From IMG/VR virus record IMGVR_UViG_3300025916_000008, positions 40,845 through 104,844 of that record: a stretch of DNA of 64,000 nt. One strand, 5' to 3'. The notes beneath the pieces were generated by a model. The model did not search any database and had not been told where the DNA came from. It saw only the letters and a program-made list of their open reading frames with translations. Within the stretch, counting starts at the first letter, position 1; each line of letters opens with the position of its first letter. A program made the position numbers and the translations under genes. Positions 20,251 through 51,947 of the stretch are shown piece after piece. The stretch is from a virus (taxonomy: Duplodnaviria; Heunggongvirae; Uroviricota; Caudoviricetes).

Positions 20251-20284
20251 AGCTGTATTCAGCAACCCCAGGGAGGGCCAGGAC

Positions 20285-31224: not shown

Positions 31225-31240
31225 CAAGAAAAGCTGTAAG
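31222..31240 (-). promoter_or_regulatory. degenerate reverse-oriented half of a palindromic motif pair (tagcaagaaaagctgtaag)
   Basis: 15 of 19 match to the reverse complement; paired with the forward copy 12 nt downstream. Confidence 0.45.
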
Positions 31241-31251
31241 GATCTTCCACC

Positions 31252-31270
31252 GATACAGCCTTTATTGATA
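31252..31270 (+). promoter_or_regulatory. 19-bp motif copy (gatacagcctttattgata)
   Basis: 16 of 19 match; 37 nt upstream of the 31307 ATG. Confidence 0.6.
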
Positions 31271-35248: not shown

Positions 35249-35610
35249 GCGCGCCAGCAAGGGCAAAGCGGCCCGGCGCGGCGGTGCAGCGCAAGGCCCC
35301 CGTGCCGATGTGGCGCGCCCCTGACACGGTGGCGTGCCGCGACCAGGACACCAGCCTGTTCTACCCGGTGGAGGGACTGCGCGCCGACGAGCAGGAGGCG
35401 CGCTACTGGCGTGCCAAGGCGATGTGCGCCAGGTGCCCGTTCCAGGACGAGTGCCTGGAGCGCGCCATGGCCGAGGAGAAGACCGGCGGCCGGTACGGCA
35501 TCCGTGGAGGGATGACCCCCGAGGACCGCAAGCTCCTCGCCAGGAAGCAGTCCCGTAAGCCGAAGGGGAGACCAGGGCGGCCGAGGCGCACGCAGACCGT
35601 GGCCGCGTAG
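35245..35610 (+). CDS. whiB: WhiB-like (Wbl) iron-sulfur transcription factor
   Basis: Four Cys in C-x(n)-C-x2-C-x5-C spacing (CRDQ...CARCPFQDEC) plus the GIRGG turn and basic tail. GTG at 35245 is GTGA-coupled; an alternative ATG lies at 35308. Confidence 0.8.
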   Translation: MSAPARAKRPGAAVQRKAPVPMWRAPDTVACRDQDTSLFYPVEGLRADEQEARYWRAKAMCARCPFQDECLERAMAEEKTGGRYGIRGGMTPEDRKLLARKQSRKPKGRPGRPRRTQTVAA

Positions 35611-35620
35611 CCCTTTCCTC

Positions 35621-35639
35621 AATACGGCTTTTCTTGATA
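35621..35639 (+). promoter_or_regulatory. 19-bp motif copy (aatacggcttttcttgata)
   Basis: 18 of 19 match; 11 nt after the whiB-like stop and 58 nt upstream of the 35697 ATG. Confidence 0.7.
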
Positions 35640-35696: not shown

Positions 35697-36518
35697 ATGC
35701 CAGGACAGGACATCAGCACCAGGGACGGGCGCACGCTCCACGCCCGCAACACGGCCGGGAGCGGCGGCGAGGCGGCTGACGGCCCGGTCGCCGTGCTCGT
35801 CAAGGCCCCGGTGCTCGAAGCCGTCGTCATCATCAGCGACGGGGTGCGCAGTGCCTCCGCCGTCATCGGCGGGGACAAGGCCGATGAGGTACGCGCCCGG
35901 TGGGAGGGCGGCATCTGGCGGCTGGAGTGGCCGGAGGATGCCGGGGTCACCGTCATCAGCGGCGGGGTCCAGTTCGGGAACGGCAACGTCCAGTTCAACA
36001 GCTTCGGCGGCTCCGTCTTCGCCGGGCGCAACGTCACCGTCAACGGGGTACGTGTGGGCAGCGGCAGCATGCCGGCCGTCGAGACTCCCACCCTCCAGCT
36101 CTACCTGCCGTCCGGTTGCACCCTGATGATGGACACCCAGAGCGGCGACCTGCGCGTGCCCGCTCCCGTCAACGAGCGGCACGGCCTGACCGCGCTCAAC
36201 TTCAGCAGCCAGTCCGGGAGCGTCTCCTCTGACTGCGCCGTCGGCAGCCTGAGCGCGCAGACGGCAAGCGGCGACGTCACGGCCAGCGGGGTCACCGGGC
36301 AGGTCAGCGCCAGCTCGATGTCCGGGGACGTCACCATCAGGCAGGCAGCCGGCACTGTCCAGGCAAAGGCCATGAGCGGTGACGTCAAGGTGCACGCCAT
36401 CGAGGGCGTGATGGTCACCGCCTCCTCGATGTCCGGTGATGTCCGGGTCACCCAGGCACAGGGCGTCCGCGCGATGGTGAGCGCGTCCTCGATGTCGGGG
36501 CGCGTCAGCAAGCCCTAG
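35697..36518 (+). CDS. beta-helix repeat protein (DUF4097/adhesin-like SGDV repeats)
   Basis: ATG at 35697 after an AAGGAGGGG; repeated MSGDV(T/K/R)V motifs every ~20 aa. Confidence 0.45.
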   Translation: MPGQDISTRDGRTLHARNTAGSGGEAADGPVAVLVKAPVLEAVVIISDGVRSASAVIGGDKADEVRARWEGGIWRLEWPEDAGVTVISGGVQFGNGNVQFNSFGGSVFAGRNVTVNGVRVGSGSMPAVETPTLQLYLPSGCTLMMDTQSGDLRVPAPVNERHGLTALNFSSQSGSVSSDCAVGSLSAQTASGDVTASGVTGQVSASSMSGDVTIRQAAGTVQAKAMSGDVKVHAIEGVMVTASSMSGDVRVTQAQGVRAMVSASSMSGRVSKP

Positions 36519-36539
36519 CAGCAGGTGACCCTAACCGAG

Positions 36540-36566
36540 GAGGCCGGGAGAAGTTTTCCCGGCCTC
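36540..36566 (+). terminator. terminator hairpin preceding motif copy
   Basis: 9-bp stem gaggccggg / cccggcctc; loop rich in T. Confidence 0.5.
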
Positions 36567-36573
36567 TTCCGCT

Positions 36574-36592
36574 AATACAGCTTTTCTTGATA
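36574..36592 (+). promoter_or_regulatory. 19-bp motif copy, perfect consensus
   Basis: aatacagcttttcttgata; terminator hairpin upstream, conserved leader downstream. Confidence 0.75.
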
Positions 36593-36633
36593 TGTTGGCA
36601 GTGCAAGGGACGAGCAGCGAGGAGGAGCGCCAG

Positions 36634-37047
36634 ATGGGCAGCTACGACCAGCTTCCAGAGGACTACGACGGGCCTGCCCCCGAGCACGCGATCTTGTGCA
36701 ACTCCAGGTGGAGCCACAAGGGCCTGCGTCACGCGCACCCCAGCGTCGAGCTGGTAAGGCTGTGCTACGCCGCTGCCGCCGACGAGGCGAAGGGCATGGA
36801 GGTCTGGCCCTGCTCCTGGGGGATGCTGGCTTACAACGAGGACGGCGCTTACACCGTCGAGTGCGGGCTCCCCACCCGCTACACCGACCAGCGCGGCTCC
36901 TACGAGTGCGCAGGGGGACACGATCACGTCCCTGCCGACCTGCTCTACGAGCGGGGCCAGGCCTATACCGATGACCCGCTGGAGGCCGAGGGCCTGGCGC
37001 GCAACGGCGTCTTCCCGCTCCAGCCGAACGGGCAGGCGTGGTCCTGA
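36634..37047 (+). CDS. hypothetical protein
   Basis: ATG at 36634 after a conserved leader with a GAGGAGGAG SD. Confidence 0.5.
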   Translation: MGSYDQLPEDYDGPAPEHAILCNSRWSHKGLRHAHPSVELVRLCYAAAADEAKGMEVWPCSWGMLAYNEDGAYTVECGLPTRYTDQRGSYECAGGHDHVPADLLYERGQAYTDDPLEAEGLARNGVFPLQPNGQAWS

Positions 37048-37367
37048 TGCCCGCGTACAGGCTGATAGCCGTCAAGGCGGACGGGACAGGACTCGACCAC
37101 TCGTGGGGCGACTCCTACGAGGTTGAGCACGCCACCTACCCGGAGGCCGAGGCAGACGTCCTCGGCCGCGAGGGAGCAGACGGCGCGAAGCCCTACGACA
37201 GGATCGTGAAGGGCTGGGTGAAGGACGGCTGGCGCTGGGACCCGATCCCCGCCTGCCAGGGGTGCGGGAGCTTTCCCGCCGAAACCCAGTGGGCCGGGAC
37301 CGGCGAGCTGATCTGCTGGACGTGCTGCGAGGCCAGGCAGATGCCTGATGAAGGGAGAGAGCAGTGA
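37047..37367 (+). CDS. hypothetical protein with C-terminal CQGCG...CWTCC
   Basis: ATG at 37047 (or GTG at 37038). Confidence 0.45.
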   Translation: MPAYRLIAVKADGTGLDHSWGDSYEVEHATYPEAEADVLGREGADGAKPYDRIVKGWVKDGWRWDPIPACQGCGSFPAETQWAGTGELICWTCCEARQMPDEGREQ

Positions 37368-37543
37368 GCCAGGAAGAGCGGGCACTGACCCAGGAGGAGC
37401 GGGCGCTCAAGCGGTGCTGCCGCGCCTGCCGGGCAGGCGTCGGCGAGAAGTGCTTCGACCTGCGGCCCGGCTACAAGGGGCTGCGGAAGAAGCACCTCTG
37501 CTCCACGCGCGTCGTGGACGCGAGGCCGGGGGCGAGGCGGTGA
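37364..37543 (+). CDS. small Zn-ribbon protein
   Basis: GTG at 37364 (GTGA); CCRACRAG...CFDLRPGY, paralogous to the C-terminus of the next gene. Confidence 0.35.
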   Translation: MSQEERALTQEERALKRCCRACRAGVGEKCFDLRPGYKGLRKKHLCSTRVVDARPGARR

Positions 37544-37974
37544 CCGACGGGATTCTCAGGGAGCACGGCGTCACCCCCAGCGCCGAGAGCATCTTCGCCA
37601 GGTGGGGCATGTGGCCCAGCTCCCCGGCGGTCAGCGAGATCGCCCGTCGCGAGCAGGCTAAGCGGCTGCTCGTGTACCTCGCCCTCAAGGGCTACGGCGT
37701 GCCCGCCTGGGACCGCCTCACCAAGGGCGAGCAGGACGCCCTGTCCGAGGAGCTGGCCAGGGTGTTCCGGGACACCGAGGCCGAGGTGCGCAAGCTGGCC
37801 CTCGCTGAGCTGGCCGAGTACGAGCGCAGGGCGCTGGCCCTCCAGTGCGAGAAGTGCCGTGCCCAGGAGGGCACCCAGTGCTGGGACATGCGTCCGGGCT
37901 TCCAGAGGAGGCACGTCAGCCACCCGCACAAGGAGCGGATGGAAGCGCTGGCAGAGGCGGAGGCGGAAGCGTGA
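37540..37974 (+). CDS. hypothetical protein with C-terminal Zn ribbon
   Basis: GTG at 37540 (GTGA); CEKCRAQEGTQCWDMRPGF. Confidence 0.45.
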   Translation: MTDGILREHGVTPSAESIFARWGMWPSSPAVSEIARREQAKRLLVYLALKGYGVPAWDRLTKGEQDALSEELARVFRDTEAEVRKLALAELAEYERRALALQCEKCRAQEGTQCWDMRPGFQRRHVSHPHKERMEALAEAEAEA

Positions 37975-38498
37975 GGTTCTTCGAGGAGTACAGGGTGAGG
38001 CTCGCCGACCCGGTGTTCGACTGGGATGCCCTGTCGTGGCTGCGCGCCGCCGTCGAGGCGCGCCTGGTGGACATGCACGAGCGGGCGGGCGAGGTGCTGC
38101 CCACCGACCTGGCGCGGGGCCTGGACCGGATGGCCGGCTACGCGGGCCGCGACCAGATGTACCTGGTGCTGCACGGCCAGAACCTGATCGCCTGCCACGC
38201 GCTCACCCCCGACGGCGACCCTGTGTTCTGGACGCCCGGGGAGCTGCGCCAGGAGGCGCTGTACCTCGACAACGCGATGGTGCACCCGACCAAGGCCCAC
38301 ATGGGGCTCGGCGCGCTGATCACCAGGCACGCCCTCGAAGAGGCCAGGGAGCGGCGCATGGACTTCGTGCGCCTGGACTGCCAGCGCTCCAACCCGAGGC
38401 TGCGCTCCCACTGGGAGAACCTCGGCTTCACCCACCTGCGCGACGTGGAGGTACCCGGCCGCGCGTCCGGCACCCTGATGGAGGCGAAGGTCTCGTAA
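37971..38498 (+). CDS. GNAT family N-acetyltransferase
   Basis: Motif A-like segment VHPTKAHMGLGALITRHALEEARERRMDFVRLDCQRSNPRLRSHWENLGF. Confidence 0.55.
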   Translation: MRFFEEYRVRLADPVFDWDALSWLRAAVEARLVDMHERAGEVLPTDLARGLDRMAGYAGRDQMYLVLHGQNLIACHALTPDGDPVFWTPGELRQEALYLDNAMVHPTKAHMGLGALITRHALEEARERRMDFVRLDCQRSNPRLRSHWENLGFTHLRDVEVPGRASGTLMEAKVS

Positions 38499-39025
38499 TG
38501 GCACAACAGGACAAGTACGGCAACTGGTGGCCCGATTACTTCTTCACCAACCCGTCGCCGGAAGAGCAGGAACGACTCGACAACCTCGCCCGGGGAGCGT
38601 TCGCCGCAGGCAATGCCTCGGTCGCCGCCAACCCGTCCGATCCCGCGTTCTGGATGCTCCTCGACAAGCACGTCAGCATCCCTGTGGTGCACCGGGACGG
38701 CTGCTACATCTGCGAGGACCCCGAGTTCGCCGCGATGGGGCTGCCGCTGTGCTCCCCCTGCCCGAACTGCGTGCGGCAGATGGAGATCTGCCCGACGTGC
38801 GGCGGGCGCGGCGGGATGGCCGACAACACCCCCTGCACCGACTGCCTGAAGACCGGCATCATCGGCACCCTCGGCCACATCGCCGCCGACGACACCACGT
38901 GCGACGAGTGCGACTACGAGCACGGCCCCGACGACTACGGGGAGGACGGGCTGCTCACCGGGATGCCCAGGGAGAAGGCCGTGTTCGTCTACAACCTGAA
39001 GCACCCCCAGGACCCCAGGTCATGA
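38498..39025 (+). CDS. Cys-rich protein (multiple CxxC)
   Basis: ATG at 38498; CYIC, CSPCPNC, CPTCG, CTDC, CDEC. Confidence 0.5.
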   Translation: MAQQDKYGNWWPDYFFTNPSPEEQERLDNLARGAFAAGNASVAANPSDPAFWMLLDKHVSIPVVHRDGCYICEDPEFAAMGLPLCSPCPNCVRQMEICPTCGGRGGMADNTPCTDCLKTGIIGTLGHIAADDTTCDECDYEHGPDDYGEDGLLTGMPREKAVFVYNLKHPQDPRS

Positions 39026-39348
39026 CTCGCGACGAGCTGGTAGCGCGAGACGAGGCGTACCTGGAGGAGGCCAGGCAGGCGGCCGAGGCCGTGATCGACG
39101 GCATCATCCCTGCGGTCTACCTCCCCGCCTGGCCCCGGAACTACAACCCGTACCTCCTGCTGGGCAGCACCACCGACCCGGCCGTCTTCCGGCTCACCCT
39201 GGTCAACATCAGGCTGGCCATCCGGACGGAGGAGGCCTGGTCGAAGTGCGTCAACTGCGAGCGGCTGTACCTGTGCGGCGCTTACGGTAACACCTGCTCG
39301 GCCGAGTGCTTCGCCGCCCGCTCGAACTTCCTCGACAACCCGAAGTAA
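39022..39348 (+). CDS. hypothetical protein with C-terminal CVNC...CSAEC
   Basis: ATG at 39022; coupled. Confidence 0.45.
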   Translation: MTRDELVARDEAYLEEARQAAEAVIDGIIPAVYLPAWPRNYNPYLLLGSTTDPAVFRLTLVNIRLAIRTEEAWSKCVNCERLYLCGAYGNTCSAECFAARSNFLDNPK

Positions 39349-39369
39349 ATCCGTCACAGAAGGGAAATC

Positions 39370-39846
39370 ATGAACATCCCACGGTTCCTCGCCGTCGCCG
39401 CCGTCGCGGCAGGCGTCATCACGGTCGCCGCGTGCGGCCCGTCCAGCGGGAACGGGGCCGCGTCGCACGTCCCCACCGCGTTCACGCCCTCGGCTATCGC
39501 CAGCGCCACCCAGGCGCAGGCCGCCGAGTCCGCTGTCGCCCAGGTGGCCGACAAGTGCCTCCCCCAGGGCACCAGCGTCAACCTCTGGATCGTCGAGCTG
39601 CTCGCCAAGAAGAGCACCCGCCAGGCGTTCGTCACGTGCGAGAAGATCCCTCCGGGCGACGGCGACAAGGTGGCCGCGTGCATCCTCACCGCCGCCCAGG
39701 CCTACCACGCCAGCAGCGCGGACAAGGCCGCGAAGCAGGCGGCGTTCATCACGAGCGCCGGCACCTGCGTCAACAGCCTCGGCGCTACCCCCTCGGGCAG
39801 CCCGTCCGCCGCGTCGCTCGCCCCTAGCACCGCGAGCAGCACGTGA
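39370..39846 (+). CDS. secreted lipoprotein
   Basis: Signal peptide with lipobox VAAC at residues 19-22; Ala/Ser-rich mature part. Confidence 0.55.
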   Translation: MNIPRFLAVAAVAAGVITVAACGPSSGNGAASHVPTAFTPSAIASATQAQAAESAVAQVADKCLPQGTSVNLWIVELLAKKSTRQAFVTCEKIPPGDGDKVAACILTAAQAYHASSADKAAKQAAFITSAGTCVNSLGATPSGSPSAASLAPSTASST

Positions 39847-40868
39847 GCGTCATCTCGCACCTGCTCCCCCACCGCAAGCTCGCCGGGCAGGTGAACGCAG
39901 GCATCAGCGACGGCATCACCGCCCTCGGCCAGTCCCAGGGCACTCTGCTCACCGGGCAGAAGGTCAAGGCCCGCTTCATCCAGTCCGCGATCTGGGGCAT
40001 CGTCGCCGGCCTCTGCGGCGCGGCCGTCGTCGCCGGCTTCTACGACGGCCTGTTCCAGGTGAACTGGTACGTCCACGTCGGCGACGTCCACTTCGAGATC
40101 TTCTGGCTGAAGAGCTGGTGGGACAACCTGGTCGGCTACCCCTGGTGGACCTTGTACCGGCACGGGATACGCGACTATGGCGAGCCTGCCTTCGCCACCC
40201 TCGCGGTCAAGACCCTGATGGCGAACCGCAAGTACTGGGGCGTCCGGGTCAGTGGCGTGGAGGTGGCCGTGCGAGCGGCGGCGGTCATCGTCCTCACCAT
40301 CGTCCTGGCGGTCCTCGGGATCTGGCTGGTCGACTTCAGCCTCCCCTGGGCATGGGCGCACGTCGCGTCCTCCGTCGGCCACCCCGGCTACAAGGTGAGC
40401 GCTCACTTCCTCGGCAAGCTCAGCGTCCCGCAGCTCGCCTTCGGGCTGCTCGTCATGGGCCAGGTCATCCACCGCGTGTGGGCTCCGGCCGGGGCGACGC
40501 TCCAGGGCGCGCTGATGGACCGGGCGGTCGATCGCAAGCAGTCGGTCGTGCAGAAGGCCAGCGCGCACCTGGCAGCCAGCATCCCGGGCTACGGCAAGTC
40601 CATCTCGATGGACGAGGCCGTGGTGATCGACCACGCCGGGTGGCACATCATCCCTGCCTGGGTCCGGCTGCCGCTGTCGCCGCCCGTCATCCGGGAGCGC
40701 TTCTCCGAGATGTGGCGCGGCAACCAGGCGGTGAAGACCCGCAAGGGCCACCGCACGGCCATCATGATCCTGGCCTTCTTCCTGTTCCTGGTCATGTGCC
40801 TCGGCCTGGTGGGGGCGCACTGGGCGGCGCTGGGGCACACGGTGCCGTACCTGTTCCCGGGGCACTAG
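39843..40868 (+). CDS. polytopic membrane protein (341 aa)
   Basis: GTG at 39843 coupled to the lipoprotein gene; at least 6 hydrophobic helices. Confidence 0.5.
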   Translation: MSVISHLLPHRKLAGQVNAGISDGITALGQSQGTLLTGQKVKARFIQSAIWGIVAGLCGAAVVAGFYDGLFQVNWYVHVGDVHFEIFWLKSWWDNLVGYPWWTLYRHGIRDYGEPAFATLAVKTLMANRKYWGVRVSGVEVAVRAAAVIVLTIVLAVLGIWLVDFSLPWAWAHVASSVGHPGYKVSAHFLGKLSVPQLAFGLLVMGQVIHRVWAPAGATLQGALMDRAVDRKQSVVQKASAHLAASIPGYGKSISMDEAVVIDHAGWHIIPAWVRLPLSPPVIRERFSEMWRGNQAVKTRKGHRTAIMILAFFLFLVMCLGLVGAHWAALGHTVPYLFPGH

Positions 40869-40883
40869 CACCAGGGAACCCAG

Positions 40884-40918
40884 GGGGCCGCAGGAGTGAT
40901 AATCACCCCTGCGGCCCC
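40884..40918 (+). terminator. terminator hairpin preceding motif copy
   Basis: 11-bp perfect stem ggggccgcagg / cctgcggcccc extended by a partly palindromic loop. Confidence 0.55.
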
Positions 40919-40925
40919 TTCCATG

Positions 40926-40944
40926 AATACAGCTTTTCTTGATA
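40926..40944 (+). promoter_or_regulatory. 19-bp motif copy, perfect consensus
   Basis: Preceded by hairpin 40884-40918; ATG 10 nt downstream. Confidence 0.75.
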
Positions 40945-40954
40945 ATATTCTCTC

Positions 40955-41299
40955 ATGAGCCTCACCCAGTTGATGATCCGCCCGGAGATCCTCGCCGCCC
41001 ACAAGGCCACCTGGTTCGTGGTGGCCGGACGCCAGCGGATACGCCGCACCAGCAGGATGCGCGGCACCTGGGGCTACGACGTCACCTGCTCGTGCGGCTG
41101 GGACAGCAAGACCGGCGGCGCGACCAGGGGCAGCGTGGAGGACGCGCTGTTCGACCACCGCATGGACGCCCAGATCGACGCTGACGCGCTCGCCCAGGCC
41201 TGCCCCGACTGCAAGGCCGAGCCCGGCACCGGGTGCAGCGACTGGAGCCGCCTGGTCAGCTACATGCACGCCGGGCGTTACCAGGCCATCCCCGACTGA
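40955..41299 (+). CDS. hypothetical protein with CSCG...CPDC
   Basis: ATG 10 nt after the motif copy. Confidence 0.45.
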   Translation: MSLTQLMIRPEILAAHKATWFVVAGRQRIRRTSRMRGTWGYDVTCSCGWDSKTGGATRGSVEDALFDHRMDAQIDADALAQACPDCKAEPGTGCSDWSRLVSYMHAGRYQAIPD

Positions 41300-41341
41300 G
41301 GACTTTCTTCCCGCAAGGAACCAGCAACCGAAAGAGGGAAC

Positions 41342-42079
41342 ATGCCAGACAACAACGACCTGCTCGACCGGGTGCGCAAGCTGCTCGCCAAGGCCGAGGA
41401 CGAGGGCTGCCCGCCGACCGAGGCCGAGGCGCTGACCGCCAAGGCGGCCGAGCTGATGGCCCGCTACGGCATCGACCGGGCGCTGCTCGGCGCGCTGCGC
41501 CCGGAAACCGACAAGCCGACCAGCAGGGCGTTCACCCTCGACAACCCCTGGGGCGACGTGAAGCGTCACCTGCTGGCCGGCCTGGCGAGCGTGATGCGCT
41601 GCCAGTGCGTGCAGACCAAGAGCGGCCGGGGCGCGGCAGAGACCACCGTCCTGCGCGTCTTCGGTTACCAGTCGGACATCGACCGGGCCGAGCTGCTGTT
41701 CACCTCGCTGCTCGTGCAGCAGGCCAGGGCGCTCGCCAGCCAGGCGGTGCCCGGCTACGGCAGCGAGGCGCGGACGTGGCGGCGCTCCTGGATGCTCGGG
41801 TTCAACTCGGCCGTGGTAGCGCGGGTCCGCGCGGCCGAGGAAGCTGCCGCCAAGTCCTCGGAGGACTCCGGCGAGGAGGCCGGGGGGATGTCCTCCGCCC
41901 TGGTCCTGGCCGACCGATCGCTGGTTGTCCGGTCCCTGGTGAGCAGCCAGTACCCCCGGCTCCGCAAGGCGCGGGTCACCTACTCGGGCGACGGTTACGG
42001 CGACGGGTACCGCGAGGGGCAGAAGGCCGACATCGGCACCACCCGGATCGGCGGAGGGCAGCGGGCGCTCAGCCGCTAG
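41342..42079 (+). CDS. DUF2786-like protein
   Basis: N-terminal LLDRVRKLLAKAEDEGCPPTEAEALTAKAAELMARYGI matches the DUF2786 signature; GAAAGAGGGAA SD. Confidence 0.5.
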   Translation: MPDNNDLLDRVRKLLAKAEDEGCPPTEAEALTAKAAELMARYGIDRALLGALRPETDKPTSRAFTLDNPWGDVKRHLLAGLASVMRCQCVQTKSGRGAAETTVLRVFGYQSDIDRAELLFTSLLVQQARALASQAVPGYGSEARTWRRSWMLGFNSAVVARVRAAEEAAAKSSEDSGEEAGGMSSALVLADRSLVVRSLVSSQYPRLRKARVTYSGDGYGDGYREGQKADIGTTRIGGGQRALSR

Positions 42080-42095
42080 CCCGGTGCGGAGAGGG

Positions 42096-42122
42096 CGCAG
42101 GGGAAGCCCTGCGTCCTTTTCG
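42096..42122 (+). terminator. intrinsic terminator with T-tract
   Basis: 7-bp stem cgcaggg / ccctgcg with loop gaag, then tccttttcg. Confidence 0.55.
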
Positions 42123-42138
42123 CGTTCCCCATTGCGTC

Positions 42139-42157
42139 AATACAGCTTTTCTTGATA
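42139..42157 (+). promoter_or_regulatory. 19-bp motif copy, perfect consensus, start of 60-nt cassette
   Basis: Followed by leader atgttggtcttgcaagggacgagcggccaggaggacccc ATG. Confidence 0.75.
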
Positions 42158-42196
42158 ATGTTGGTCTTGCAAGGGACGAGCGGCCAGGAGGACCCC

Positions 42197-42502
42197 ATGG
42201 GATACCAGATGACCCCCACGACCAGGACGGCGATCCGGGCGCTGACGGCGGCCGGCCTCCGGCACCGTGGCCCCGACAAGGACTTCAAGGTCTGCAAGGA
42301 GACGAAGAACGGCGAGGTCCAGTACACCTACGTCGTCTTCCTCACCGAGCGCGGCGCGAAGCTCGCCCTCACCGAGGCCCGCTACATCGAGGCCGTCTGC
42401 CGCGACTACGGCTACCCGTTCCACGTGGTGCCGACCAGGAACCGCGCCGGCGGGGCGATCATGCACAACAGCACCGCGCCGAGCACGCAGGGGGAGCAGT
42501 GA
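42197..42502 (+). CDS. hypothetical protein
   Basis: ATG at 42197 after the conserved motif-leader cassette (CCAGGAGGA SD). Confidence 0.5.
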   Translation: MGYQMTPTTRTAIRALTAAGLRHRGPDKDFKVCKETKNGEVQYTYVVFLTERGAKLALTEARYIEAVCRDYGYPFHVVPTRNRAGGAIMHNSTAPSTQGEQ

Positions 42503-42939
42503 GCATCAGGTGGCACCGGATGACGATGACCGTGGACGGGCACGACAGCCCGCTCCTGGTCTACGTCAACGACGAGCGCGACTGGGCCGGCTGGACGATC
42601 GACCGGGTGCCCCAGGGCTCCCGGTTCGAGTACCAGGTGCGGTACCACAGCGACAAGATGGGCGGCCTCCAGCCCGGCCTCGCCGAGGCCAGGGCCGTCG
42701 TCGAGCGCGGCGGCCGGGACGCCTACGACCCGCCGCGCATGAGCGGCCGGGTGCAGGTCGAGTACGAGTACGCCGTCACCAGCGGGATCGTGAAGCAGGA
42801 CAACGGCGGCAGCCGCGTCCTGGTCCGCATGAAGACCCCGGACGGCCCCCAGGTCGGCCGCAACGTGGTGGCTTACCACGGGCACCCGTACGAGCGCTGG
42901 ATCGAGCGATCGAAGCTGAAGGAGTACAGGCGCTGGTAA
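42499..42939 (+). CDS. hypothetical protein
   Basis: GTG at 42499 (residue 423 of ORF 41233-42939). Confidence 0.45.
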   Translation: MSIRWHRMTMTVDGHDSPLLVYVNDERDWAGWTIDRVPQGSRFEYQVRYHSDKMGGLQPGLAEARAVVERGGRDAYDPPRMSGRVQVEYEYAVTSGIVKQDNGGSRVLVRMKTPDGPQVGRNVVAYHGHPYERWIERSKLKEYRRW

Positions 42940-42952
42940 TTCCTCCTTCCTA

Positions 42953-42971
42953 AATACAGCTTTTCTTGATA
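42953..42971 (+). promoter_or_regulatory. 19-bp motif copy, perfect consensus, second copy of 60-nt cassette
   Basis: Leader nearly identical to the 42158-42196 leader. Confidence 0.75.
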
Positions 42972-43010
42972 ATGTTGGTCTTGCAAGGGACAAGCGACCA
43001 GGAGGACCTG

Positions 43011-43991
43011 ATGACCCAGATGACCCGCCAGCAGATGACCGAGTTCGACGCCCGCGAGCTGGAGTACATCACCCGGCGCGACGAGGTAATGCTCCGCCTG
43101 GCCAGCTTCCAGGACCGCGTGCACCCCATGGTGCGCGACAAGCGCCAGCGCTTCGGCTCCAGGACCTGGGAACTCACCGACCAGCAGGCCGAGGAGCTGC
43201 TGGAGCAGCACGCGGCCGGGGACGACGCCTGGGACGCGCGCATCTCGATGCGGCCCTCGGAGATGATCATCCTCCTCGCTCAGACCCGCGACCTGATCAG
43301 CGTCCTGAACGGCTCCATCGAGGCGATGGAGAACGAGTACCGCAAGGCTCCCTGGCAGCGGTACTTTCCCTGCCTGAACGCCGACGGCCACATCCACGCC
43401 ACGCTGCGAGCCTGCCCTACCGTCCGCCTGGACACCTCGATGGGATGGGCCGTCCAGTACTCCGGCCTCACCGCCGACGAGGCCATCCATGGGGTACCCG
43501 GTGAGTTCGAGGGCCTCGGCGAGACGCTGTGCTCGGTCTGCTTCCCCGGTGCCCCCGCCGAGTGGTGCCGGACCCGCAGCGAGATCACCCGCGCCGAGCG
43601 CGAGGCGGCCAAGGCAGTGAAGGACGCCGAGCGGGATGCCGTCAAGGCCGCCAAGAACCTGGCCGAGCCGTTCAGGGCCTGGGACGGGGACCGCATCACC
43701 ACGGTGGCCGCCGCCAAGGCAGCCGTCCGCAGGCCGGCCGAGACCCAGGTCGAGCTGGAGTGGAACAAGACCCTGGAGGCCTCCAGCCGGTGGGAGGACC
43801 AGGAGAGCTACCAGGCGTTCATCGCCCGCATGGAGCGCCGCCTGGAGATGGAGCGGGCGGACGCGGTTCAGCTCAGCTACATCCTGATCGCCCGCGAGGC
43901 CGCTGCCCCCGGCACCGGCTGGAGCCGGGCCGACCAGGACAAGGCCTTCGCCGACGCGCTGAAGCGCAACCGCAGGGCCTGGTTCAAGTAA
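43011..43991 (+). CDS. hypothetical protein (326 aa)
   Basis: ATG at 43011 after the second copy of the motif-leader cassette. Confidence 0.5.
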   Translation: MTQMTRQQMTEFDARELEYITRRDEVMLRLASFQDRVHPMVRDKRQRFGSRTWELTDQQAEELLEQHAAGDDAWDARISMRPSEMIILLAQTRDLISVLNGSIEAMENEYRKAPWQRYFPCLNADGHIHATLRACPTVRLDTSMGWAVQYSGLTADEAIHGVPGEFEGLGETLCSVCFPGAPAEWCRTRSEITRAEREAAKAVKDAERDAVKAAKNLAEPFRAWDGDRITTVAAAKAAVRRPAETQVELEWNKTLEASSRWEDQESYQAFIARMERRLEMERADAVQLSYILIAREAAAPGTGWSRADQDKAFADALKRNRRAWFK

Positions 43992-43995
43992 GACC

Positions 43996-44031
43996 AGAGG
44001 CCCGGCCCCCGTCACTAGGGGCCGGGCCTCT
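43996..44031 (+). terminator. terminator hairpin
   Basis: 14-bp stem agaggcccggcccc / ggggccgggcctct with loop cgtcacta, then ttaac. Confidence 0.6.
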
Positions 44032-44043
44032 TTAACATCCGTA

Positions 44044-44062
44044 TATCAAGAAAACCTGTATC
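44044..44062 (-). promoter_or_regulatory. 19-bp motif copy in reverse orientation (tatcaagaaaacctgtatc)
   Basis: 17 of 19 match to the reverse complement; between terminator 43996-44031 and the 44074 ATG. Confidence 0.6.
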
Positions 44063-44073
44063 ATGGAGGAACT

Positions 44074-44382
44074 ATGAGCGACCACTACCATCACGTCGGC
44101 GACGTCCAGGGGGCAGCCCCAGAGGGGCACAGCCACACGCCCCGTGAGATCGGCGCGGCCGAGGAGCACGACCTGGAAATGCTCAGGCGCGACGTCCAGC
44201 GGCTCGAATCCCAGCTCACCGAGGCGCTGCGCCAGCATGCCGAGCTGGTGCGCCAGCACCAGGAGATGGCGAAGGACCAGACCGAGCTGGTGGAGCTGGT
44301 CCAGACACTCACCAGGGCTACCCAGTCAATCGGCCAGAGCGTGGCCGACCTGTCCTCAACGATCCAGGGAGTACTCTCATGA
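44074..44382 (+). CDS. hypothetical coiled-coil protein
   Basis: GGAGGAA SD; His-rich N-terminus then a Leu/Gln/Glu heptad-like segment. Confidence 0.45.
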   Translation: MSDHYHHVGDVQGAAPEGHSHTPREIGAAEEHDLEMLRRDVQRLESQLTEALRQHAELVRQHQEMAKDQTELVELVQTLTRATQSIGQSVADLSSTIQGVLS

Positions 44383-44555
44383 CCCTCTTCGGGTGGGAAC
44401 TGAGCCGCATCCTCAAGTGGCTCCTGATCCTCGCCGTCATCGTGTTCATCTTCAAGAACCCGGTCGGCGCGGCAGCGGAGTTCCACCGCTTCCTCGCCTT
44501 CCTCGACCACATCATGAACAGCATCATCACGTTCGTGAACTCGGCCGCCTCCTAG
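44379..44555 (+). CDS. small membrane protein (58 aa)
   Basis: ATGA-coupled ATG; two hydrophobic helices. Confidence 0.35.
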   Translation: MTLFGWELSRILKWLLILAVIVFIFKNPVGAAAEFHRFLAFLDHIMNSIITFVNSAAS

Positions 44556-44557
44556 CC

Positions 44558-45124
44558 ATGGCCAGGGGGAAGCGCCGCTACGGGCGCAAGCTGAGCCGCT
44601 GGGGCCTCCCGGCGGCTACAGTCTTCACCCTGTGGCTGGCCGACAACGACCCGTTCGGGCCGTCCGGCCTCCTGGCATTCCTCGGGCTGGCCCTGCTGCT
44701 GTCCGTCTTCTGGCCGGTCGCCCTGATCATGCTCGTGCAAGCCCCAGGCAGCCTTGTGCCGAACTCCTGGCGCATCTGGTGGCGCGGCGGTGACCCGGGC
44801 AGGCCGCACATCCCCAACTGGCTCAGGCGGGCCGTGTACGCCGCCGACGGGCGGCGCTGCTGCTACTGCGGCTACGCCGGCTCCCTCCAGCTCGACCACG
44901 TGCGCCCCTGGTCGCGCGGCGGGCGCTCCTCGCTGTGGAACCTGATGACGCTGTGCGAGCCGTGCAACCTGGTCAAGTCGAACTACTGGCAGGACCGGGA
45001 CTACCGCTGGTACCGGCCGTTTGCCGGGCACGACAACATCCGCACGGCGGCGGCCATCCTCTCGTTCGAGCGCAGGCACCGCTGGAGCCCTCTGCGTCTC
45101 ATTCGGGCAGCAATGGCACTTTAA
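44558..45124 (+). CDS. HNH endonuclease with N-terminal membrane-anchor region
   Basis: CCYCGYAGSLQLDHVRPWSRGG...NLMTLCEPCNLVKSN is a canonical HNH motif (C-x2-C...DH...N...C-x2-C-N). Confidence 0.75.
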   Translation: MARGKRRYGRKLSRWGLPAATVFTLWLADNDPFGPSGLLAFLGLALLLSVFWPVALIMLVQAPGSLVPNSWRIWWRGGDPGRPHIPNWLRRAVYAADGRRCCYCGYAGSLQLDHVRPWSRGGRSSLWNLMTLCEPCNLVKSNYWQDRDYRWYRPFAGHDNIRTAAAILSFERRHRWSPLRLIRAAMAL

Positions 45125-45191
45125 GGCTGCGGGGCAACGCGCTCCCGTACTATCTTTCCCTGGTAATCCTGACCCAGGAAGGAAGTTTGCC

Positions 45192-46184
45192 TTGAAGCTA
45201 AAGCCAAGGTTTGCCCTGCCGGCCGCGTTGCTGCTGGCCGTAGGGATCGGGGCGGGTGCCTTCGCGGCGACCAGCGCCCCGGTCGTTAACCCCAACGTCG
45301 ACACCGTGGGCATCGTGGGCTACTCAGCCCTCCAGAACGGCAACGACACCTACTTCACCCACATGGGCGGCCAGTTCGGGCTCGGTGACCCGCAGTACAA
45401 CGTGGACAACCCGCAGATCCCGTTCCACCCGTTCATCGGCTCGCTGGTGGACAGCCTGTCCGGTCACTCCTGGACCAGATTCACCAACCCGCTCGGGATC
45501 ACCGTCTCGGCGGCCCGCGAGCAGCTCTGCGGCGGCTTGCACTCCTTCGACCGTGGCAAGGCGATCGAGGAGGTGATCGTCCCCGACTCCGCCACCACGG
45601 TCGCGGTCGTGGCGATCGTCGGCCAGTACGCCCCCAACGGCGGCGACCCGTGCATGTCGGCCGTCCTCCCCTCCGGCGTGGCCGAGGCCGTCCTGAAGCA
45701 CATCCCTGACCGCGACACCATCAAGCTGGACCTGCTGTTCGACGGCGAGCACGCGCACAACGGCACCACGGCCGGGAACGCCTCGTTCATCGCCACCGAC
45801 CTGAGCCACCCCACGGCGAACCAGGTGAACACCGACACCCCGGTCTTCGGCGGCGAGAGCATGGACGCGACCAGCGAGTTCTACGAGGCCCAGAACGGGC
45901 TGATCGGCGTCAAGGGCGGCACCCCCACCGCCAGCCTCCCGTCGGAGATCGTGCCTGACGTGAACTTCCCGGGGCTGGTGGCCAAGGAGGCGCACGGCGC
46001 GCTCAACGGCAACAGCCTCAACGGCGAGGTCTTCGGGTCCTTCCAGTCTGGTCAGGCCTGGACCGTGACCCCGGACGTGACCGAGCAGGGCGGCAACGTC
46101 ATCACCGGGGCCGTCTCCCAGTACCGGAGCGACCACTTCTCGATGTATACGGCTCCGGGCGTTTTCCCGGCAGCCCTGAGCTAG
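45192..46184 (+). CDS. secreted protein (signal peptide, 330 aa)
   Basis: TTG start at 45192 after an AGGAAGG; KLKPRFALPAALLLAVGIGAGAFAA signal peptide; lower-GC upstream spacer. Confidence 0.5.
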   Translation: MKLKPRFALPAALLLAVGIGAGAFAATSAPVVNPNVDTVGIVGYSALQNGNDTYFTHMGGQFGLGDPQYNVDNPQIPFHPFIGSLVDSLSGHSWTRFTNPLGITVSAAREQLCGGLHSFDRGKAIEEVIVPDSATTVAVVAIVGQYAPNGGDPCMSAVLPSGVAEAVLKHIPDRDTIKLDLLFDGEHAHNGTTAGNASFIATDLSHPTANQVNTDTPVFGGESMDATSEFYEAQNGLIGVKGGTPTASLPSEIVPDVNFPGLVAKEAHGALNGNSLNGEVFGSFQSGQAWTVTPDVTEQGGNVITGAVSQYRSDHFSMYTAPGVFPAALS

Positions 46185-46221
46185 TTCCAGTAGGCTGGGC
46201 CTGCCGCAAATGGTCCGTTAA

Positions 46222-46253
46222 GAGGCCCCCTCCCACCGCCGGGAGGGGGCCTC
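46222..46253 (+). terminator. terminator hairpin
   Basis: Perfect 13-bp stem gaggccccctccc / gggagggggcctc with loop accgcc. Confidence 0.6.
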
Positions 46254-46277
46254 GCGGCTTCCCGGGGTCCTTGTGCG

Positions 46278-46296
46278 AATACAGCTTTTCTTGATA
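46278..46296 (+). promoter_or_regulatory. 19-bp motif copy, perfect consensus
   Basis: Terminator 46222-46253 upstream; leader with CCAGGAGGG SD downstream. Confidence 0.75.
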
Positions 46297-46339
46297 TCCT
46301 CCTGGTGCAGAGAACAAGACGCCGAGCCAGGAGGGCATC

Positions 46340-46819
46340 ATGAGGTACTTCGCGCTGGTAGGGACCGACGACAGCGTGGTCGCAGGCGAGGTCTGCGACC
46401 TGATCATCGTGGACGAGGACTCCCCCGGCGCGTCCGGGCTATCGCTTCCGCTGTTCGTCAAGGTCACCGACCCCGACAAGCTGGGCAAGGCCCAGGCCGC
46501 CGCCGAGGGCGTGCTCCGTGAGCTGGACTGGCGCGTCACCGGGCCATGGGAGATCGCCGACACGCACCTGCGCGCCCCGGTGGAGATGAGGGGGCCAGGT
46601 ACGGCCGGGGCAGCGCCGCGCGAGGCCGACGAGTGGCCCGCCGGGAAGTCCTTCGGCGAGCTGAGCCCGGGGCAGAAGGTCGTCCAGGCGAGGAAGGCCG
46701 GGCGGAGGCTGGAGGCGGAGCTGAACTCCCCTGCGGTGCAGGCCGCGATCAGCGCGCTCCTGGACTCGGACCTGGACGAGCAGGACGCGGCAGCCGTCGA
46801 GCGGCACCTCGGCCTGTAG
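46340..46819 (+). CDS. hypothetical protein
   Basis: ATG at 46340 after terminator + motif + leader. Confidence 0.5.
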   Translation: MRYFALVGTDDSVVAGEVCDLIIVDEDSPGASGLSLPLFVKVTDPDKLGKAQAAAEGVLRELDWRVTGPWEIADTHLRAPVEMRGPGTAGAAPREADEWPAGKSFGELSPGQKVVQARKAGRRLEAELNSPAVQAAISALLDSDLDEQDAAAVERHLGL

Positions 46820-46826
46820 CCGGAAG

Positions 46827-46862
46827 CAAGAGCCCGGACCGGACAGTCGGTCCGGGCTCTTG
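46827..46862 (+). terminator. terminator hairpin
   Basis: Perfect 15-bp stem caagagcccggaccg / cggtccgggctcttg with loop gacagt. Confidence 0.65.
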
Positions 46863-46866
46863 CGTG

Positions 46867-46885
46867 AATACAGCTTTTCTTGATA
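46867..46885 (+). promoter_or_regulatory. 19-bp motif copy, perfect consensus
   Basis: 15-bp-stem terminator 46827-46862 immediately upstream. Confidence 0.75.
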
Positions 46886-46924
46886 TTCTCCTAGTGCAAG
46901 GACACGAGCAGCCAGGAGGACGCC

Positions 46925-47443
46925 ATGAGCAGGACCAAGCGCCAGTTCGCCGCCTACGTGCGCTCAACCGGGGCCAGCCCCGAGATCGAGATCACCGTCG
47001 AGCACTCCAGCGAGAAGTACGACCTCGTGGGCGTCGTGCTCGACCAGCAGAACCAGATTCACCCCGTCGCCTACGGCGTCTCGCGCAACTCGGTCGTCTC
47101 GCGCACCCGGACCATCTGCCGCAAGCAGGGCTACTGGTACAGCACCCACGACGTGTTCATCAACACCTGCGTCGCCACCCTGTGGGAGGTCACCGCCCCC
47201 GTCGTGCGCGAGTACTTCGGCAGCCACAAGGTGGTCATCACCCAGGGCTTCCTCCCCGGCTCCGGCTGGGTCGACCTGAGGATCGGCGAGCACGGCCGCA
47301 AGGCAGGCAAGGGCCGCATCCGGGCGCTGCTCCGCGAGGGCTACACCGCGCTCGGCTTCAGCCAGGGCGGCCGGACCGCCGACTTCCAGGCAGACGAGCT
47401 GGTCAAGTCGATGAACCTCCGGCCGAAGGCCCAGCCGTGCTAG
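46925..47443 (+). CDS. hypothetical protein
   Basis: ATG at 46925 after terminator + motif + leader. Confidence 0.5.
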   Translation: MSRTKRQFAAYVRSTGASPEIEITVEHSSEKYDLVGVVLDQQNQIHPVAYGVSRNSVVSRTRTICRKQGYWYSTHDVFINTCVATLWEVTAPVVREYFGSHKVVITQGFLPGSGWVDLRIGEHGRKAGKGRIRALLREGYTALGFSQGGRTADFQADELVKSMNLRPKAQPC

Positions 47444-48228: not shown

Positions 48229-49230
48229 CTACAGGGCCAGCAGCGGGGCCAGCTCAGCCAGCTCCCCCGCGCCCGCCGCGCCTCCCGTAGCCTCTCCCGC
48301 CCCGGCACCCGCGCCGCCCGGCAGCATCGAGCGCAGCCCCTGGCCCGCCAGCATGTCCTTGACGGCTCCCCCGTGCCCGCCGCCGCTGCCGCCGTCCCCG
48401 CCGGAGCCGCCGCCGCCCATCGGGGCGTTGCTGATCGCCGAGTCGGAGAGGTCAGCCTCGCGCAGGTAGCCCGACACCACCTTGCGGGCCACCCGCTCGC
48501 ACTCCTCGCGGGGCAGCCCCGGGTTGGCCTGGGCGATGGCCGCCGTCGCCTGGAGGACCCTGGAGCGCACCGGGTCGCGGCTGGAGGTGACCTGGCCGAC
48601 AGGGGCGGCCGACCCGCCCGGCATGCCGGCGGGGATGCTGGGGGTCATCCCGCCGCTGCCGGGGGAGGCCACGCCGATGTCCAGGGAGCCGTCCCCGGTG
48701 CCCAGGTCCGGCGGGGTGTACTGGTTCGTCATCATCCCCTGCGGGCTGGCGTCCGCCGTCCTGCGCAGCGACCCGGTGGCCTCCTGGACCGGGGCGGCGG
48801 CCTCCGGGCGGGGGCGGGTCACCTGCGGGCTGGGGCCGGACAGGGGACCGGGCGGCACCTCGGAGTAGGACCCGCTGAAGTCCGGCCCCTCGCTGTGCTG
48901 GTCGGGCTTCTCCCCACCGCCGCCCTCCCCGCCGTTCAGCAGCGGGATCAGCGACACCAGCGGGTCGGTGCCCTCCGCGAGCGCCTCCCGGTACAGGGCG
49001 TACCGCTGGGTGGCCACCTCGGTCATCGACCCGGCCTCAAGCCCGTGGCGGGCCTCCACCGTGGCGAGGGACTCCCCGGCCACTGCCAGGCGGTGGAAGA
49101 ACTCCTGGTCCGAGCGGGCCGCGTACAGGAACGGCAGGATGCCCTCCAGGTCGGCGTCCGCCCTGGCGAGCGCCGCCTGGCGGGCGATGCCCTCGTGGTC
49201 GTCCGAGGCGATCGTCCACAGGTCGTCCAT
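48229..49230 (-). CDS. Gly/Pro/Ser-rich hypothetical protein (333 aa)
   Basis: ORF; TGATG-coupled to the upstream 902-aa gene. Confidence 0.5.
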   Translation of the reverse strand: MDDLWTIASDDHEGIARQAALARADADLEGILPFLYAARSDQEFFHRLAVAGESLATVEARHGLEAGSMTEVATQRYALYREALAEGTDPLVSLIPLLNGGEGGGGEKPDQHSEGPDFSGSYSEVPPGPLSGPSPQVTRPRPEAAAPVQEATGSLRRTADASPQGMMTNQYTPPDLGTGDGSLDIGVASPGSGGMTPSIPAGMPGGSAAPVGQVTSSRDPVRSRVLQATAAIAQANPGLPREECERVARKVVSGYLREADLSDSAISNAPMGGGGSGGDGGSGGGHGGAVKDMLAGQGLRSMLPGGAGAGAGEATGGAAGAGELAELAPLLAL

Positions 49231-51938: not shown

Positions 51939-51947
51939 GTTCCCCTC

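Follow-up and report, generated by a model that had tools for sequence, protein, structure and literature searches.

What is the short sequence that recurs in front of so many genes in this piece of phage DNA, and why has it been kept almost without change? The question arises in a window of 64,000 nucleotides (positions 40,845 to 104,844 of the IMG/VR record IMGVR_UViG_3300025916_000008; by window we mean this whole stretch, and all coordinates refer to it), in which a preliminary description had listed six places between 36.5 and 46.9 kb where a GC-rich hairpin, a 19-bp motif and a leader ending in a Shine-Dalgarno (SD) sequence follow one another. We consider it likely that the 19-mer, AATACAGCTTTTCTTGATA, is the near-invariant core of a family of host-type promoters (sigma-70, or SigA/HrdB-like), and that the module built on it is a site of recombination, analogous to the promoter and stem-loop elements (PeSL) of T4-type phages.

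Sixteen copies of the 19-mer were found in the window at up to three mismatches, versus 0.00 expected from 100 shuffles. They run from 4367 to 55025, well beyond the region to which the motif had first been confined, and all of them are intergenic (one overlaps a weak 60-codon open reading frame (ORF) call), intergenic DNA making up about 5% of the window. The six exact copies (36574, 40926, 42139, 42953, 46278, and 46867) all lie inside 36.5–46.9 kb, and the copy at 44044 is on the minus strand with two mismatches. Further copies were collected from related contigs, giving first a set of 44 non-redundant sites and then one of 87; a 15-mer scan of IMG/VR returned mostly chance matches in AT-rich contigs, and loci above 60% GC alone were kept. 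In alignments of orthologous intergenic regions the 19-mer stands as an island of identity between diverged flanks, and variants specific to one site are inherited by its orthologues (C8->G before g87, TTGCTA before the UDG-family gene), which argues against simple homogenisation. On both grounds the core appears to be kept by selection at each site and not by homogenisation.

The layout would be that of a sigma-70-type promoter, in which a -35 hexamer TTGnnn (often weakened to TTCCnn) is followed by a spacer of 17–18 bp that is the motif itself (AATACAGCTTTTCTTGA) and then by an extended -10, TGA-TAnnnT, whose TA is provided by the final two bases of the motif, the transcript starting 7 nt past the hexamer. 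The flanks are the informative positions here, as they lie outside the searched 19-mer and are thus free of ascertainment bias. The base that closes TAnnnT, motif position 23, is T in 33/44 sites of the first set; in the larger set it is T in 70/70 forward-hexamer sites because these were selected on it. Among these 70 sites, position 20 is A or T in all, position 30 (7 nt past the hexamer) is a purine in 55, position -5 is T in 62, and TTG stands at a spacing of 17–19 bp from the hexamer in 40, versus ~2.8% expected, the others having TTC or something weaker. Forward copies also read TGA-TAnnnT, with the TG within motif positions 15–19, as in an extended -10. In one direction or the other, TAnnnT accompanies 84 of the 87 copies. 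Two other ways of dividing the sequence into promoter hexamers were rejected: TTGATA as a -35 has no -10 at 17 bp and is contradicted by an ATG at +10, while ATACAG as a -35 with GATAAT as a -10 would leave a spacing of just 8–10 bp.

The distances to the downstream genes fit with this layout. Over the 87 sites the distance from hexamer to start codon is bimodal, with a leaderless peak at 6 nt (14 sites, where the first base of ATG or GTG is the predicted +1) and a leadered peak at 35 nt (18 sites, the range 33–39 nt holding 33 sites). Leaderless mRNAs are common in actinobacteria. The +1 would thus lie 7 nt after TAnnnT, because start codons and GCAAGG leaders sit at two fixed distances from it, regularities that are hard to explain otherwise. 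Two classes of mRNA are therefore predicted, one beginning at the A or G of the start codon itself and another with a purine-rich leader of ~29 nt that ends in a GGAGGA SD. The motif, left in the preliminary description as an unexplained element between terminator and leader, would accordingly be a promoter core composed of spacer and extended -10, and its leaderless and inverted classes had been missed. Promoter activity, use of the host polymerase and expression early in infection are all predictions from sequence, the early timing coming from gene content only (small orphan genes).

Orientation is an unusual property of this promoter family. Sorted by TAnnnT, 61 of the 87 sites have the hexamer in the direction of the motif only, 9 in both directions, 14 on the opposite strand only and 3 in neither, so that a reverse hexamer is found at 14/17 sites lacking a forward one vs 9/70 sites having it (Fisher p=7e-8). 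In reversed copies the complement of the motif 5' end gives CTG-TATnnT, with the TG one base closer and non-canonical, and in either orientation the core fills about -27 to -13. Past the reverse hexamer, the next gene or a GCAAGG leader begins after 7–9 nt, in the window as well as in the IMG/VR relatives inspected. The core at 23202–23220 (-) carries a plus-strand TATCCT at 23217–23222, with the ATG of g39 at 23230, 7 nt later, and in the orthologues in the related contigs L037 and L057 a leader starting GCAAGG or ACAAGG begins 7 nt past TATCCT. At 44044–44076 (+) the core (44044–44062 (-), the copy with two mismatches) has a plus-strand -10, TATCAT at 44059–44064, facing g87 (ATG 44074) with GGAGGAA between hexamer and start codon, an arrangement kept at the orthologous sites of contigs L001 (TATAAT) and L002 (TATCAT). 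The core at 55025–55043 (+) is inverted with respect to the local minus-strand genes, and its minus-strand -10, TATTAT at 55028–55023, faces the UDG gene g99 (54302–54874) across a leader of ~140 nt; L002 keeps the reverse TATTAT, and contig L007 reads TATTAC, which is not TAnnnT. Between the divergent genes g17 and g18, the core at 15862–15880 has a forward -10 TAAGCT with a leaderless ATG at 15891 and a reverse TATATT (15865–15860) facing g17. Finally, two inverted cores stand 11 bp apart at 31222–31270 (31222–31240 (-) and 31252–31270 (+)), where only the plus copy has a TAnnnT (TAAGCT), facing g62. The inverted copies were also considered as forward promoters of antisense or small RNAs and this was rejected, as T(-7) in motif direction is kept in 0/10 copies inverted vs the adjacent gene (44-site set); nor is the hairpin found downstream at 44044 conserved in L001.

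Sigma-70-type promoters need no fixed spacer sequence. An invariant spacer that is used either way round is most simply read as the site of a sequence-specific factor, and we suggest that the core has been selected as a spacer element working in both orientations, to which such a factor would bind, turning all these promoters on or off together. Candidate DNA-binding proteins are encoded nearby: the winged helix-turn-helix (HTH) protein g48 (25720–26088), the WhiB-like g71 (35284–35610 (+)) and the phage zinc-finger proteins g75 and g76. The gene of g71 lies directly upstream of the 35621 copy, and its product ends in a C-terminal KPKGRPGRPRR tail, which we take to resemble the AT-hook of WhiB7. 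A Phage_zn_bind_8 zinc-finger domain was seen in three proteins, including g76 and probably g75. Our tentative proposal, to which we would give rather less than an even chance, is that the 17-bp core is the site of a phage global transcription factor (with g71, g48, g75 and g76 as candidates) that acts in either orientation on the host sigma-A polymerase. If so, this factor would co-switch at least 16 promoters in the window, and probably several dozen over the genome; for actinophages this would be the equivalent of sigma appropriation or of a genome-wide early shut-off, and it would involve an orientation-independent spacer element of a kind not described for any phage, which would double as a recombination site for cassette shuffling.

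A closely related alternative, and the strongest one, is that the motif is mainly an operator for a phage regulator (an early shut-off repressor or an activator) that overlaps ordinary promoter signals, in the manner of a stoperator. It is compatible with the promoter reading and would explain why the core is so invariant. In its favour, the spacer is conserved to a degree that sigma-70 promoters do not require and is kept at orthologous sites with diverged flanks, the core serves either way round from an unchanged position with respect to the -10, two inverted copies stand side by side at 31222/31252, the DNA-binders just listed (the winged-HTH protein, the WhiB-like protein with its GRPGRPRR tail and three phage zinc-finger proteins) are encoded nearby, and a monomeric repressor reading an asymmetric phage site genome-wide has a precedent (PMC9283540). 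Against it, hardly any copies stand apart from promoters as stoperators typically do (TAnnnT being lacking at three sites of the 87-site set), no integrase or immunity repressor was seen in the window and no protein has been linked to the site, and orientation is not tied to the direction of transcription, unlike in stoperators (PMC4351075). We regard a primarily operator role as a serious possibility that comes close to an even chance without reaching it.

Regulation by a transcription factor of the host was rejected. An exact 18-mer scan of 185,579 genomes gave a single high-GC match, in a Streptosporangiaceae metagenome-assembled genome (MAG), and so lends no support to a widespread host regulon, with the limit that degenerate sites would escape an exact-match scan; the exact 19-mer sequence was not found in the literature searched. 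In the contig of this MAG (L145, JAICYD010000103.1) the exact 19-mer lies at 6547–6565 (-), with a degenerate inverted copy at ~6440, ~110 nt away, and the pair occupies an AT-rich gap in a contig of chromosomal appearance, ~480 nt upstream of an Ltp-like surface lipoprotein gene and with adenylosuccinate synthetase, Ogt and NUDIX genes among its neighbours. Ltp proteins are known from phage exclusion. This copy may be a hint at the host family, or it may be a captured phage cassette.

Contiguous, near-invariant elements of about 19 bp in front of many genes are also what single-subunit RNA polymerases recognise, and the motif could then serve as promoter to an RNA polymerase or sigma factor encoded by the phage itself (T7-, N4- or phiKZ-like), its likeness to host promoters being accidental. 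The motif begins AATAC, which recalls the T7 promoter TAATACGACTCACTATA, and several large conserved proteins of the window (g3, g95–g97, g104–g105) have no recognisable family. However, the signals outside the motif (TTG at 17–18 bp, T at -7, a purine 7 nt past the hexamer) are of the sigma-70 type, the start deduced from the 14 leaderless sites lies 11 nt beyond the motif and not at its end, and a polymerase-specific promoter should not work reversed. Among the 106 proteins of the window and another 47 from relatives, which represent a partial genome, no sigma-factor or RNA-polymerase family was detected, and the large proteins showed no DxDGD motif. Searches of PDB sequences and of phages by tblastn for the identity of g3, g96, and g97 gave nothing, and are of no use for the polymerase question. 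That the motif serves a dedicated phage polymerase or sigma factor seems improbable to us.

The promoters are often preceded by a hairpin, and the order terminator, promoter, leader would arise where the terminator of an upstream co-directional gene stands just before the promoter. When the 60 nt upstream of each motif were folded and compared with 1500 random 60-mers of the window (mean -21.8, sd 5.5 kcal/mol), strong hairpins were found upstream of 36574, 40926, 42139, 44044, 46278, and 46867 (dG -31 to -43 kcal/mol, at or below the 4th percentile), that is, at 6/7 copies in 36.5–46.9 kb. Those at 35621, 27281, and 31252 are weaker, and 42953 and 20232 have none. As the hairpins are mutually unrelated in sequence, the repeated unit is motif plus leader, and not hairpin plus motif plus leader. 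The order that had been described for six sites therefore stands in part: the motif is present at all of them and the hairpins are strong, but the copy at 40926 has no leader or SD and the one at 44044 is inverted, while outside these six the motif occurs without a hairpin (42953, 20232) or between divergent genes (4367, 15862). Likewise, six copies following a strong hairpin is what the proposed tight insulation of transcription units leads one to expect, but termination is here deduced from hairpin strength only, most of the hairpins lack a U-tail, and we speak of putative terminators.

The leaders share a common type, although of the five that had been grouped together the one at 46297–46339 is only loosely similar. 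Their 14-mer is unenriched in the window when taken by itself (10 matches vs 10.05 expected at up to three mismatches), so that its real feature is its position at the predicted transcript start and not its frequency. The shorter box GCAAGGRA occurs 25 times across the phage loci vs 8.4 expected, and 11 of these are at the predicted +1. Could the leader then be a structured RNA (a riboswitch, a translational operator hairpin or a small RNA) of which the motif is a part? The overall enrichment of the box would favour it, as would a GCAAGGAACAAGC copy at 54954 that is conserved in three phages away from any start, and a pyrimidine stretch complementary to the SD found upstream at some sites. That stretch, however, lies upstream of the deduced transcript start and leaderless copies have no leader at all; the alignment and covariance analysis that had been proposed as a check gave no consensus pairs in RNAalifold for 12 GCAAGG-type leaders of the window and its relatives, leaders taken singly have no more stable folds than their shuffled versions (z +0.5 to +1.65 in 4/5, -0.5 in the fifth), and Rfam had no match on the whole window. 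We think a structured RNA very unlikely, and the leaders look like open purine-rich 5' untranslated regions with a strong SD, efficient in translation rather than riboswitches. The GCAAGGAACAAGC box itself is found at 54954–54967 (+), at ~3355 (-) in L002 and at 8616 (+) in L007; the window copy is ~70 nt away from the 55025 motif, opposite in strand to the local genes and beside a hairpin in the ~140-nt leader of the UDG operon.

The module of motif and leader would also serve in the exchange of genes, acting, because it is repeated many times, as a site of homologous recombination at which small orphan-gene cassettes are inserted, deleted and reordered. Its portability is best seen in the two segments 42139–42199 and 42953–43013, reported earlier as almost identical and found to agree at 57/61 positions. 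Both downstream proteins do begin with M..QMT, as had been noted, and are otherwise unrelated (BLASTP E=13), so a gene duplication was rejected as the source of the identity. Further evidence comes from soil-metagenome contigs 81–99% identical to the window. In the window the order is g81, hairpin, motif, g82–g83, hairpin, motif and leader, g84–g85, motif and leader, g86; in contig L192 (94–99% identical) it is g81, a small extra ORF, hairpin, motif and leader, g84–g85, motif and leader, a new ORF, g82–g83, hairpin, motif and leader, g86, the upstream flank of one window copy being joined to the downstream flank of another inside the motif. A pair of nearly identical genomes thus carries two cassettes in swapped order. 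Contigs L207 and L186 are without g84–g85, exactly between the two ~60-nt direct repeats, L002 is without 40926–42952, and the first gene behind the 36574 promoter is g73 in the window, g74 in L215 and g75 in L186 and L217. Most of the genes downstream of the promoters have no Pfam family, and no relatives of g85 and g91 were found in IMG/VR.

What had been called a duplicated, mobile expression cassette is thus retained as a portable module of motif and leader in front of unrelated genes, with an order and presence of cassettes that vary between close relatives, and its mobility is better ascribed to homologous recombination at repeated promoters. An autonomously spreading MITE-like (miniature inverted-repeat transposable element) repeat or a homing-endonuclease target, with the link to gene starts secondary, would fit the many copies, the rearrangements between relatives and the HNH gene g89 inside the region, but it hardly deserves credence with a unit of just 19 bp (up to ~60 bp with the leader) whose aligned copies share only the 19-mer with or without leader between unrelated flanks, without terminal inverted repeats, target-site duplications or a transposase, which keeps exact distances, to the base, from start codons and leaders, and whose junctions are those expected from homologous exchange within the repeat.

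Several points weigh against the promoter and recombination reading as a whole. The +1 is derived from spacing regularities alone. A generic sigma-70 consensus scan found no promoter here, which we attribute to -35 and -10 elements that deviate from TTGACA/TATAAT, the scan being too strict for this organism. There is no TTG in 30/70 of the -35 regions, many of which are weak, so an activator or a phage-modified polymerase may be needed, and a phage sigma factor or polymerase may be encoded elsewhere, as ~40% of the genome has been seen. The inverted copies represent only ~4–5 independent loci, and an automated test of reverse hexamers against reverse-direction genes over the 87 sites was not significant (p=0.14), a test that suffers from the high GC3 of antisense frames. 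A U-tract is missing from most hairpins, and a simple terminator scan picked up few of them. Lastly, internal homology endpoints fall in motif zones in 16/67 cases vs 2.6% of the window covered (p=1e-11), a count that takes related events several times and is supportive and not exact, and megablast alignments tend to end in intergenic DNA for reasons other than recombination.

Taken site by site along the cluster, all on the plus strand unless stated otherwise and with hairpin energies in kcal/mol, the first putative terminator hairpin (36537–36569, dG -27.0; 60-nt fold -31.0, 3.7th percentile) follows the stop of g72 (35697–36518) and leads into the g73 promoter and leader (36567–36633), with a -35-like TTCCGC at 36567–36572, the core at 36574–36592, a -10 TATGTT at 36591–36596, a predicted +1 at G 36603, a GCAAGGGACGAGC leader, the SD GAGGAGGA and the ATG at 36634. 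After the stop of g81 (39843–40868), the putative terminator at 40875–40922 (dG -33.2, 1.1th percentile) precedes the predicted leaderless promoter of g82 (40919–40957; -35-like TTCCAT, core 40926–40944, -10 TAATAT 40943–40948), whose +1 would be the A of the ATG at 40955. This ATG is exactly 10 nt past the motif, as it is at 15862 and at more than 10 sites in relatives. Behind g83 (41342–42079) a putative terminator hairpin with a T-run (42075–42135, dG -35.3, 0.5th percentile; stem GGGCGCAGGG/CCCTGCGTCC, then TTTTCGCGTT) is followed by the g84 promoter and leader (42132–42199), with -35 TTGCGT, core 42139–42157, -10 TAATGT 42156–42161, predicted +1 at 42168/42169, a GCAAGGGACGAGC leader, the SD CCAGGAGGA and the ATG at 42197, which together contain the left copy of the ~60-nt direct repeat. 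The right copy, which with the left one flanks g84–g85, is the promoter and leader of g86 (42953–43013); it has no hairpin, its core (42953–42971) comes directly after the g85 stop, and its -10 TAATGT is at 42970–42975, the predicted +1 at 42982/42983 and the ATG at 43011.

The stop of g86 (43011–43991) is followed by a hairpin that looks like a terminator on both strands (43996–44031; 15-bp stem with 12 GC, dG -34.5, 1.2th percentile) and then by the inverted core in front of g87. Within this part of the cluster lies the HNH endonuclease gene g89 (44558–45124 (+)), which is conserved in L001, L002, and L007. Downstream of g90 (45192–46184) there is a putative terminator at 46215–46257 (dG -36.1, 0.7th percentile), and the g91 promoter and leader (46271–46342) consist of -35 TTGTGC, core 46278–46296, -10 TATCCT 46295–46300, a predicted +1 at G 46307, the diverged leader GCAGAGAACAAGAC, the SD CCAGGAGGG and the ATG at 46340. 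The C-terminus of the orphan g91 (46340–46819 (+)) gives a weak match to the zf-HC2 anti-sigma zinc finger (E=4e-5), which ends before the cysteines. The last hairpin of the cluster, another putative terminator (46826–46863, dG -35.2; 60-nt fold -43.0, 0.1th percentile), comes after the g91 stop and has orthologous hairpins of differing sequence in L001, L002, and L007; it leads into the g92 promoter and leader (46860–46927), with -35 TTGCGT, core 46867–46885, -10 TATTCT 46884–46889, predicted +1 at G 46896, a GCAAGGACACGAGC leader, the SD CCAGGAGGA and the ATG at 46925.

Outside the cluster and apart from the copies already described, a core at 4367–4385 (+) lies between the divergent genes g3 and g4, with -10 TATTGT and -35 TTGCTT. 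Another, at 20232–20250 (+), comes directly after the g28 stop without a hairpin and has the -10 TAAGCT; from 20232 to 20259 (+) it forms part of a perfect 10-bp inverted repeat, AATACAGCTT / AAGCTGTATT, around TCCTTGAT. A shorter AGCTT...AAGCT symmetry is found in several other copies because their -10 is TAAGCT. A core with three mismatches at 27281–27299 (+) is placed upstream of g54 and preceded by a hairpin at 27241–27273, and one with a single mismatch at 35621–35639 (+) lies upstream of g72, just downstream of the WhiB-like g71, with a hairpin at 35562–35617 before it.

The whole window has a GC content of ~70% and no tRNA genes, and is densely packed with mostly small ORFs without known families. 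The portal protein is the 758-aa product of 9951–12227 (-), which matches phrog_2833 (E=1e-143) and is 35–38% identical to the portals of Cluster C mycobacteriophages (~37% for these) and of Gordonia and Rhodococcus myoviruses of 135–165 kb. No near match to the window at the DNA level was found among sequenced phages, and relatives are present in IMG/VR and in soil metagenomes as contigs of up to 165 kb. From the portal similarity, the lack of a near DNA match and the length of the related contigs, the window appears to be part of a large uncultivated high-GC actinophage, and probably amounts to ~40% of a genome ~160 kb long. Structural genes occupy ~5.6–15.8 kb on the minus strand, a long run of small plus-strand genes extends from 15.9 to 48.1 kb, and from 48.2 kb there is a leftward block of large genes, without recognisable family except for a UDG-family protein.

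Some of these genes deserve mention in their own right. Three conserved large proteins (333, 902, and 506 aa; 48229–53468 (-)) adjoin the UDG-family gene and have relatives 57–74% identical, and none of the three has a match in Pfam, PHROG, PDB sequences or the phage database. The 1807-aa protein encoded at 56652–62075 (-) combines one Arr-like ADP-ribosyltransferase domain and one 2H/LigT phosphoesterase domain with an RNA-ligase-like region, and its gene follows an adjoining large ORF without family that extends from 62102 to beyond 64000. Beside the portal gene, four neighbouring genes at 12280–14427 (-) resemble tandem paralogues, with shared ..TGH.. and ..RHP.V..M..QM.. stretches. Duplications of small genes are also seen at 23831–24309 (+) and 37364–37974 (+): g41 and g42 resemble tandem paralogues, and the Phage_zn_bind_8 domain recurs in the three proteins mentioned above.

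Set against the systems known from other phages, the motif recalls first the stoperators of Cluster A phages. These are asymmetric sites of 13–14 bp that are oriented with transcription and, for the most part, halt elongation at places remote from promoters. The phages that carry them are temperate and have an immunity repressor; a single phage protein reads the sites and controls early lytic promoters genome-wide (PMC9283540, PMC6550527). The actinophage described here likewise repeats short asymmetric sites in its intergenic DNA. However, nearly every copy is inside a predicted promoter, orientation is free (17/87 reversed), and neither repressor nor integrase was seen in the window. With free orientation and nearly all copies placed at a -10, the motif set does not appear to be a stoperator system. 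Conserved short repeats near gene starts are known as well from other actinophages: the start-associated sequences of Cluster K (SAS, and their extended form ESAS) go with the ribosome-binding site just ahead of the start codon (PMC3203893), while Cluster O phages have 17-bp palindromic repeats, a third of them inside genes and of unknown function, together with predicted leaderless promoters in which the +1 is the start codon (PMC4351075). The present motif differs from both, as it is asymmetric and keeps in register with the -10 and +1, with the start codon at one of two set distances; since it is linked to where the transcript begins and not to the ribosome site, it would not be a SAS.

The middle promoters of T4, activated by MotA and AsiA, offer another comparison. 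They join a host sigma-70 -10 (TAnnnT, often with TGn) to an upstream phage-specific box read by a phage protein, the MotA box, which takes the place of the -35 around -30 and always points the same way. By contrast, the present promoters often have a TTG -35, and their conserved block extends from about -29 to -13 in either orientation. Such an orientation-free invariant spacer is unusual for sigma-70-type promoters and points to a regulator.

The closest parallel is with the PeSL of T4-type phages. In each of these repeated units a strong early promoter of sigma-70-like type is combined with a terminator stem-loop and with the SD and start codon of the gene that follows, usually an orphan (Arbiol et al. 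2010, PMC2839356; Comeau et al. 2014, PMC4122927). Recombination between PeSL drives modular shuffling, and encapsidated mini-circles as well as promoter and terminator activity have been shown experimentally (PMC2839356, PMC4122927). The actinophage cassettes resemble them in combining, between genes and in repeated form, a predicted promoter of host type and a terminator-like stem-loop with the SD and start codon of the gene that follows, in being concentrated before small orphan genes, and in having the ends of insertions, deletions and replacements between relatives fall in the cassettes. They differ in that the actinophage belongs to an unrelated lineage and host phylum and has no sequence similarity to them, that its spacer, and not just its -35 and -10, is near-invariant and found in either orientation, that its stem-loop stands upstream of the promoter without overlapping it and is absent from several copies, and that a third of its copies are predicted to give leaderless mRNAs; moreover, activity and mini-circles are experimental facts for PeSL, while the actinophage module is known from sequence alone. 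The cassettes are, on this evidence, best described as an analogue of PeSL and not as a member by descent. For a large clade of soil actinophages with no cultured member, the analysis provides a testable promoter model that is precise to the base and predicts two classes of mRNA, and the 19-mer with its GCAAGG leader could be used as a compact expression part in high-GC actinomycetes. It also suggests that T4-type phages of Gram-negative hosts are not alone in using cassettes of promoter and terminator as recombination joints, and that the same solution has been reached in an unrelated high-GC lineage.

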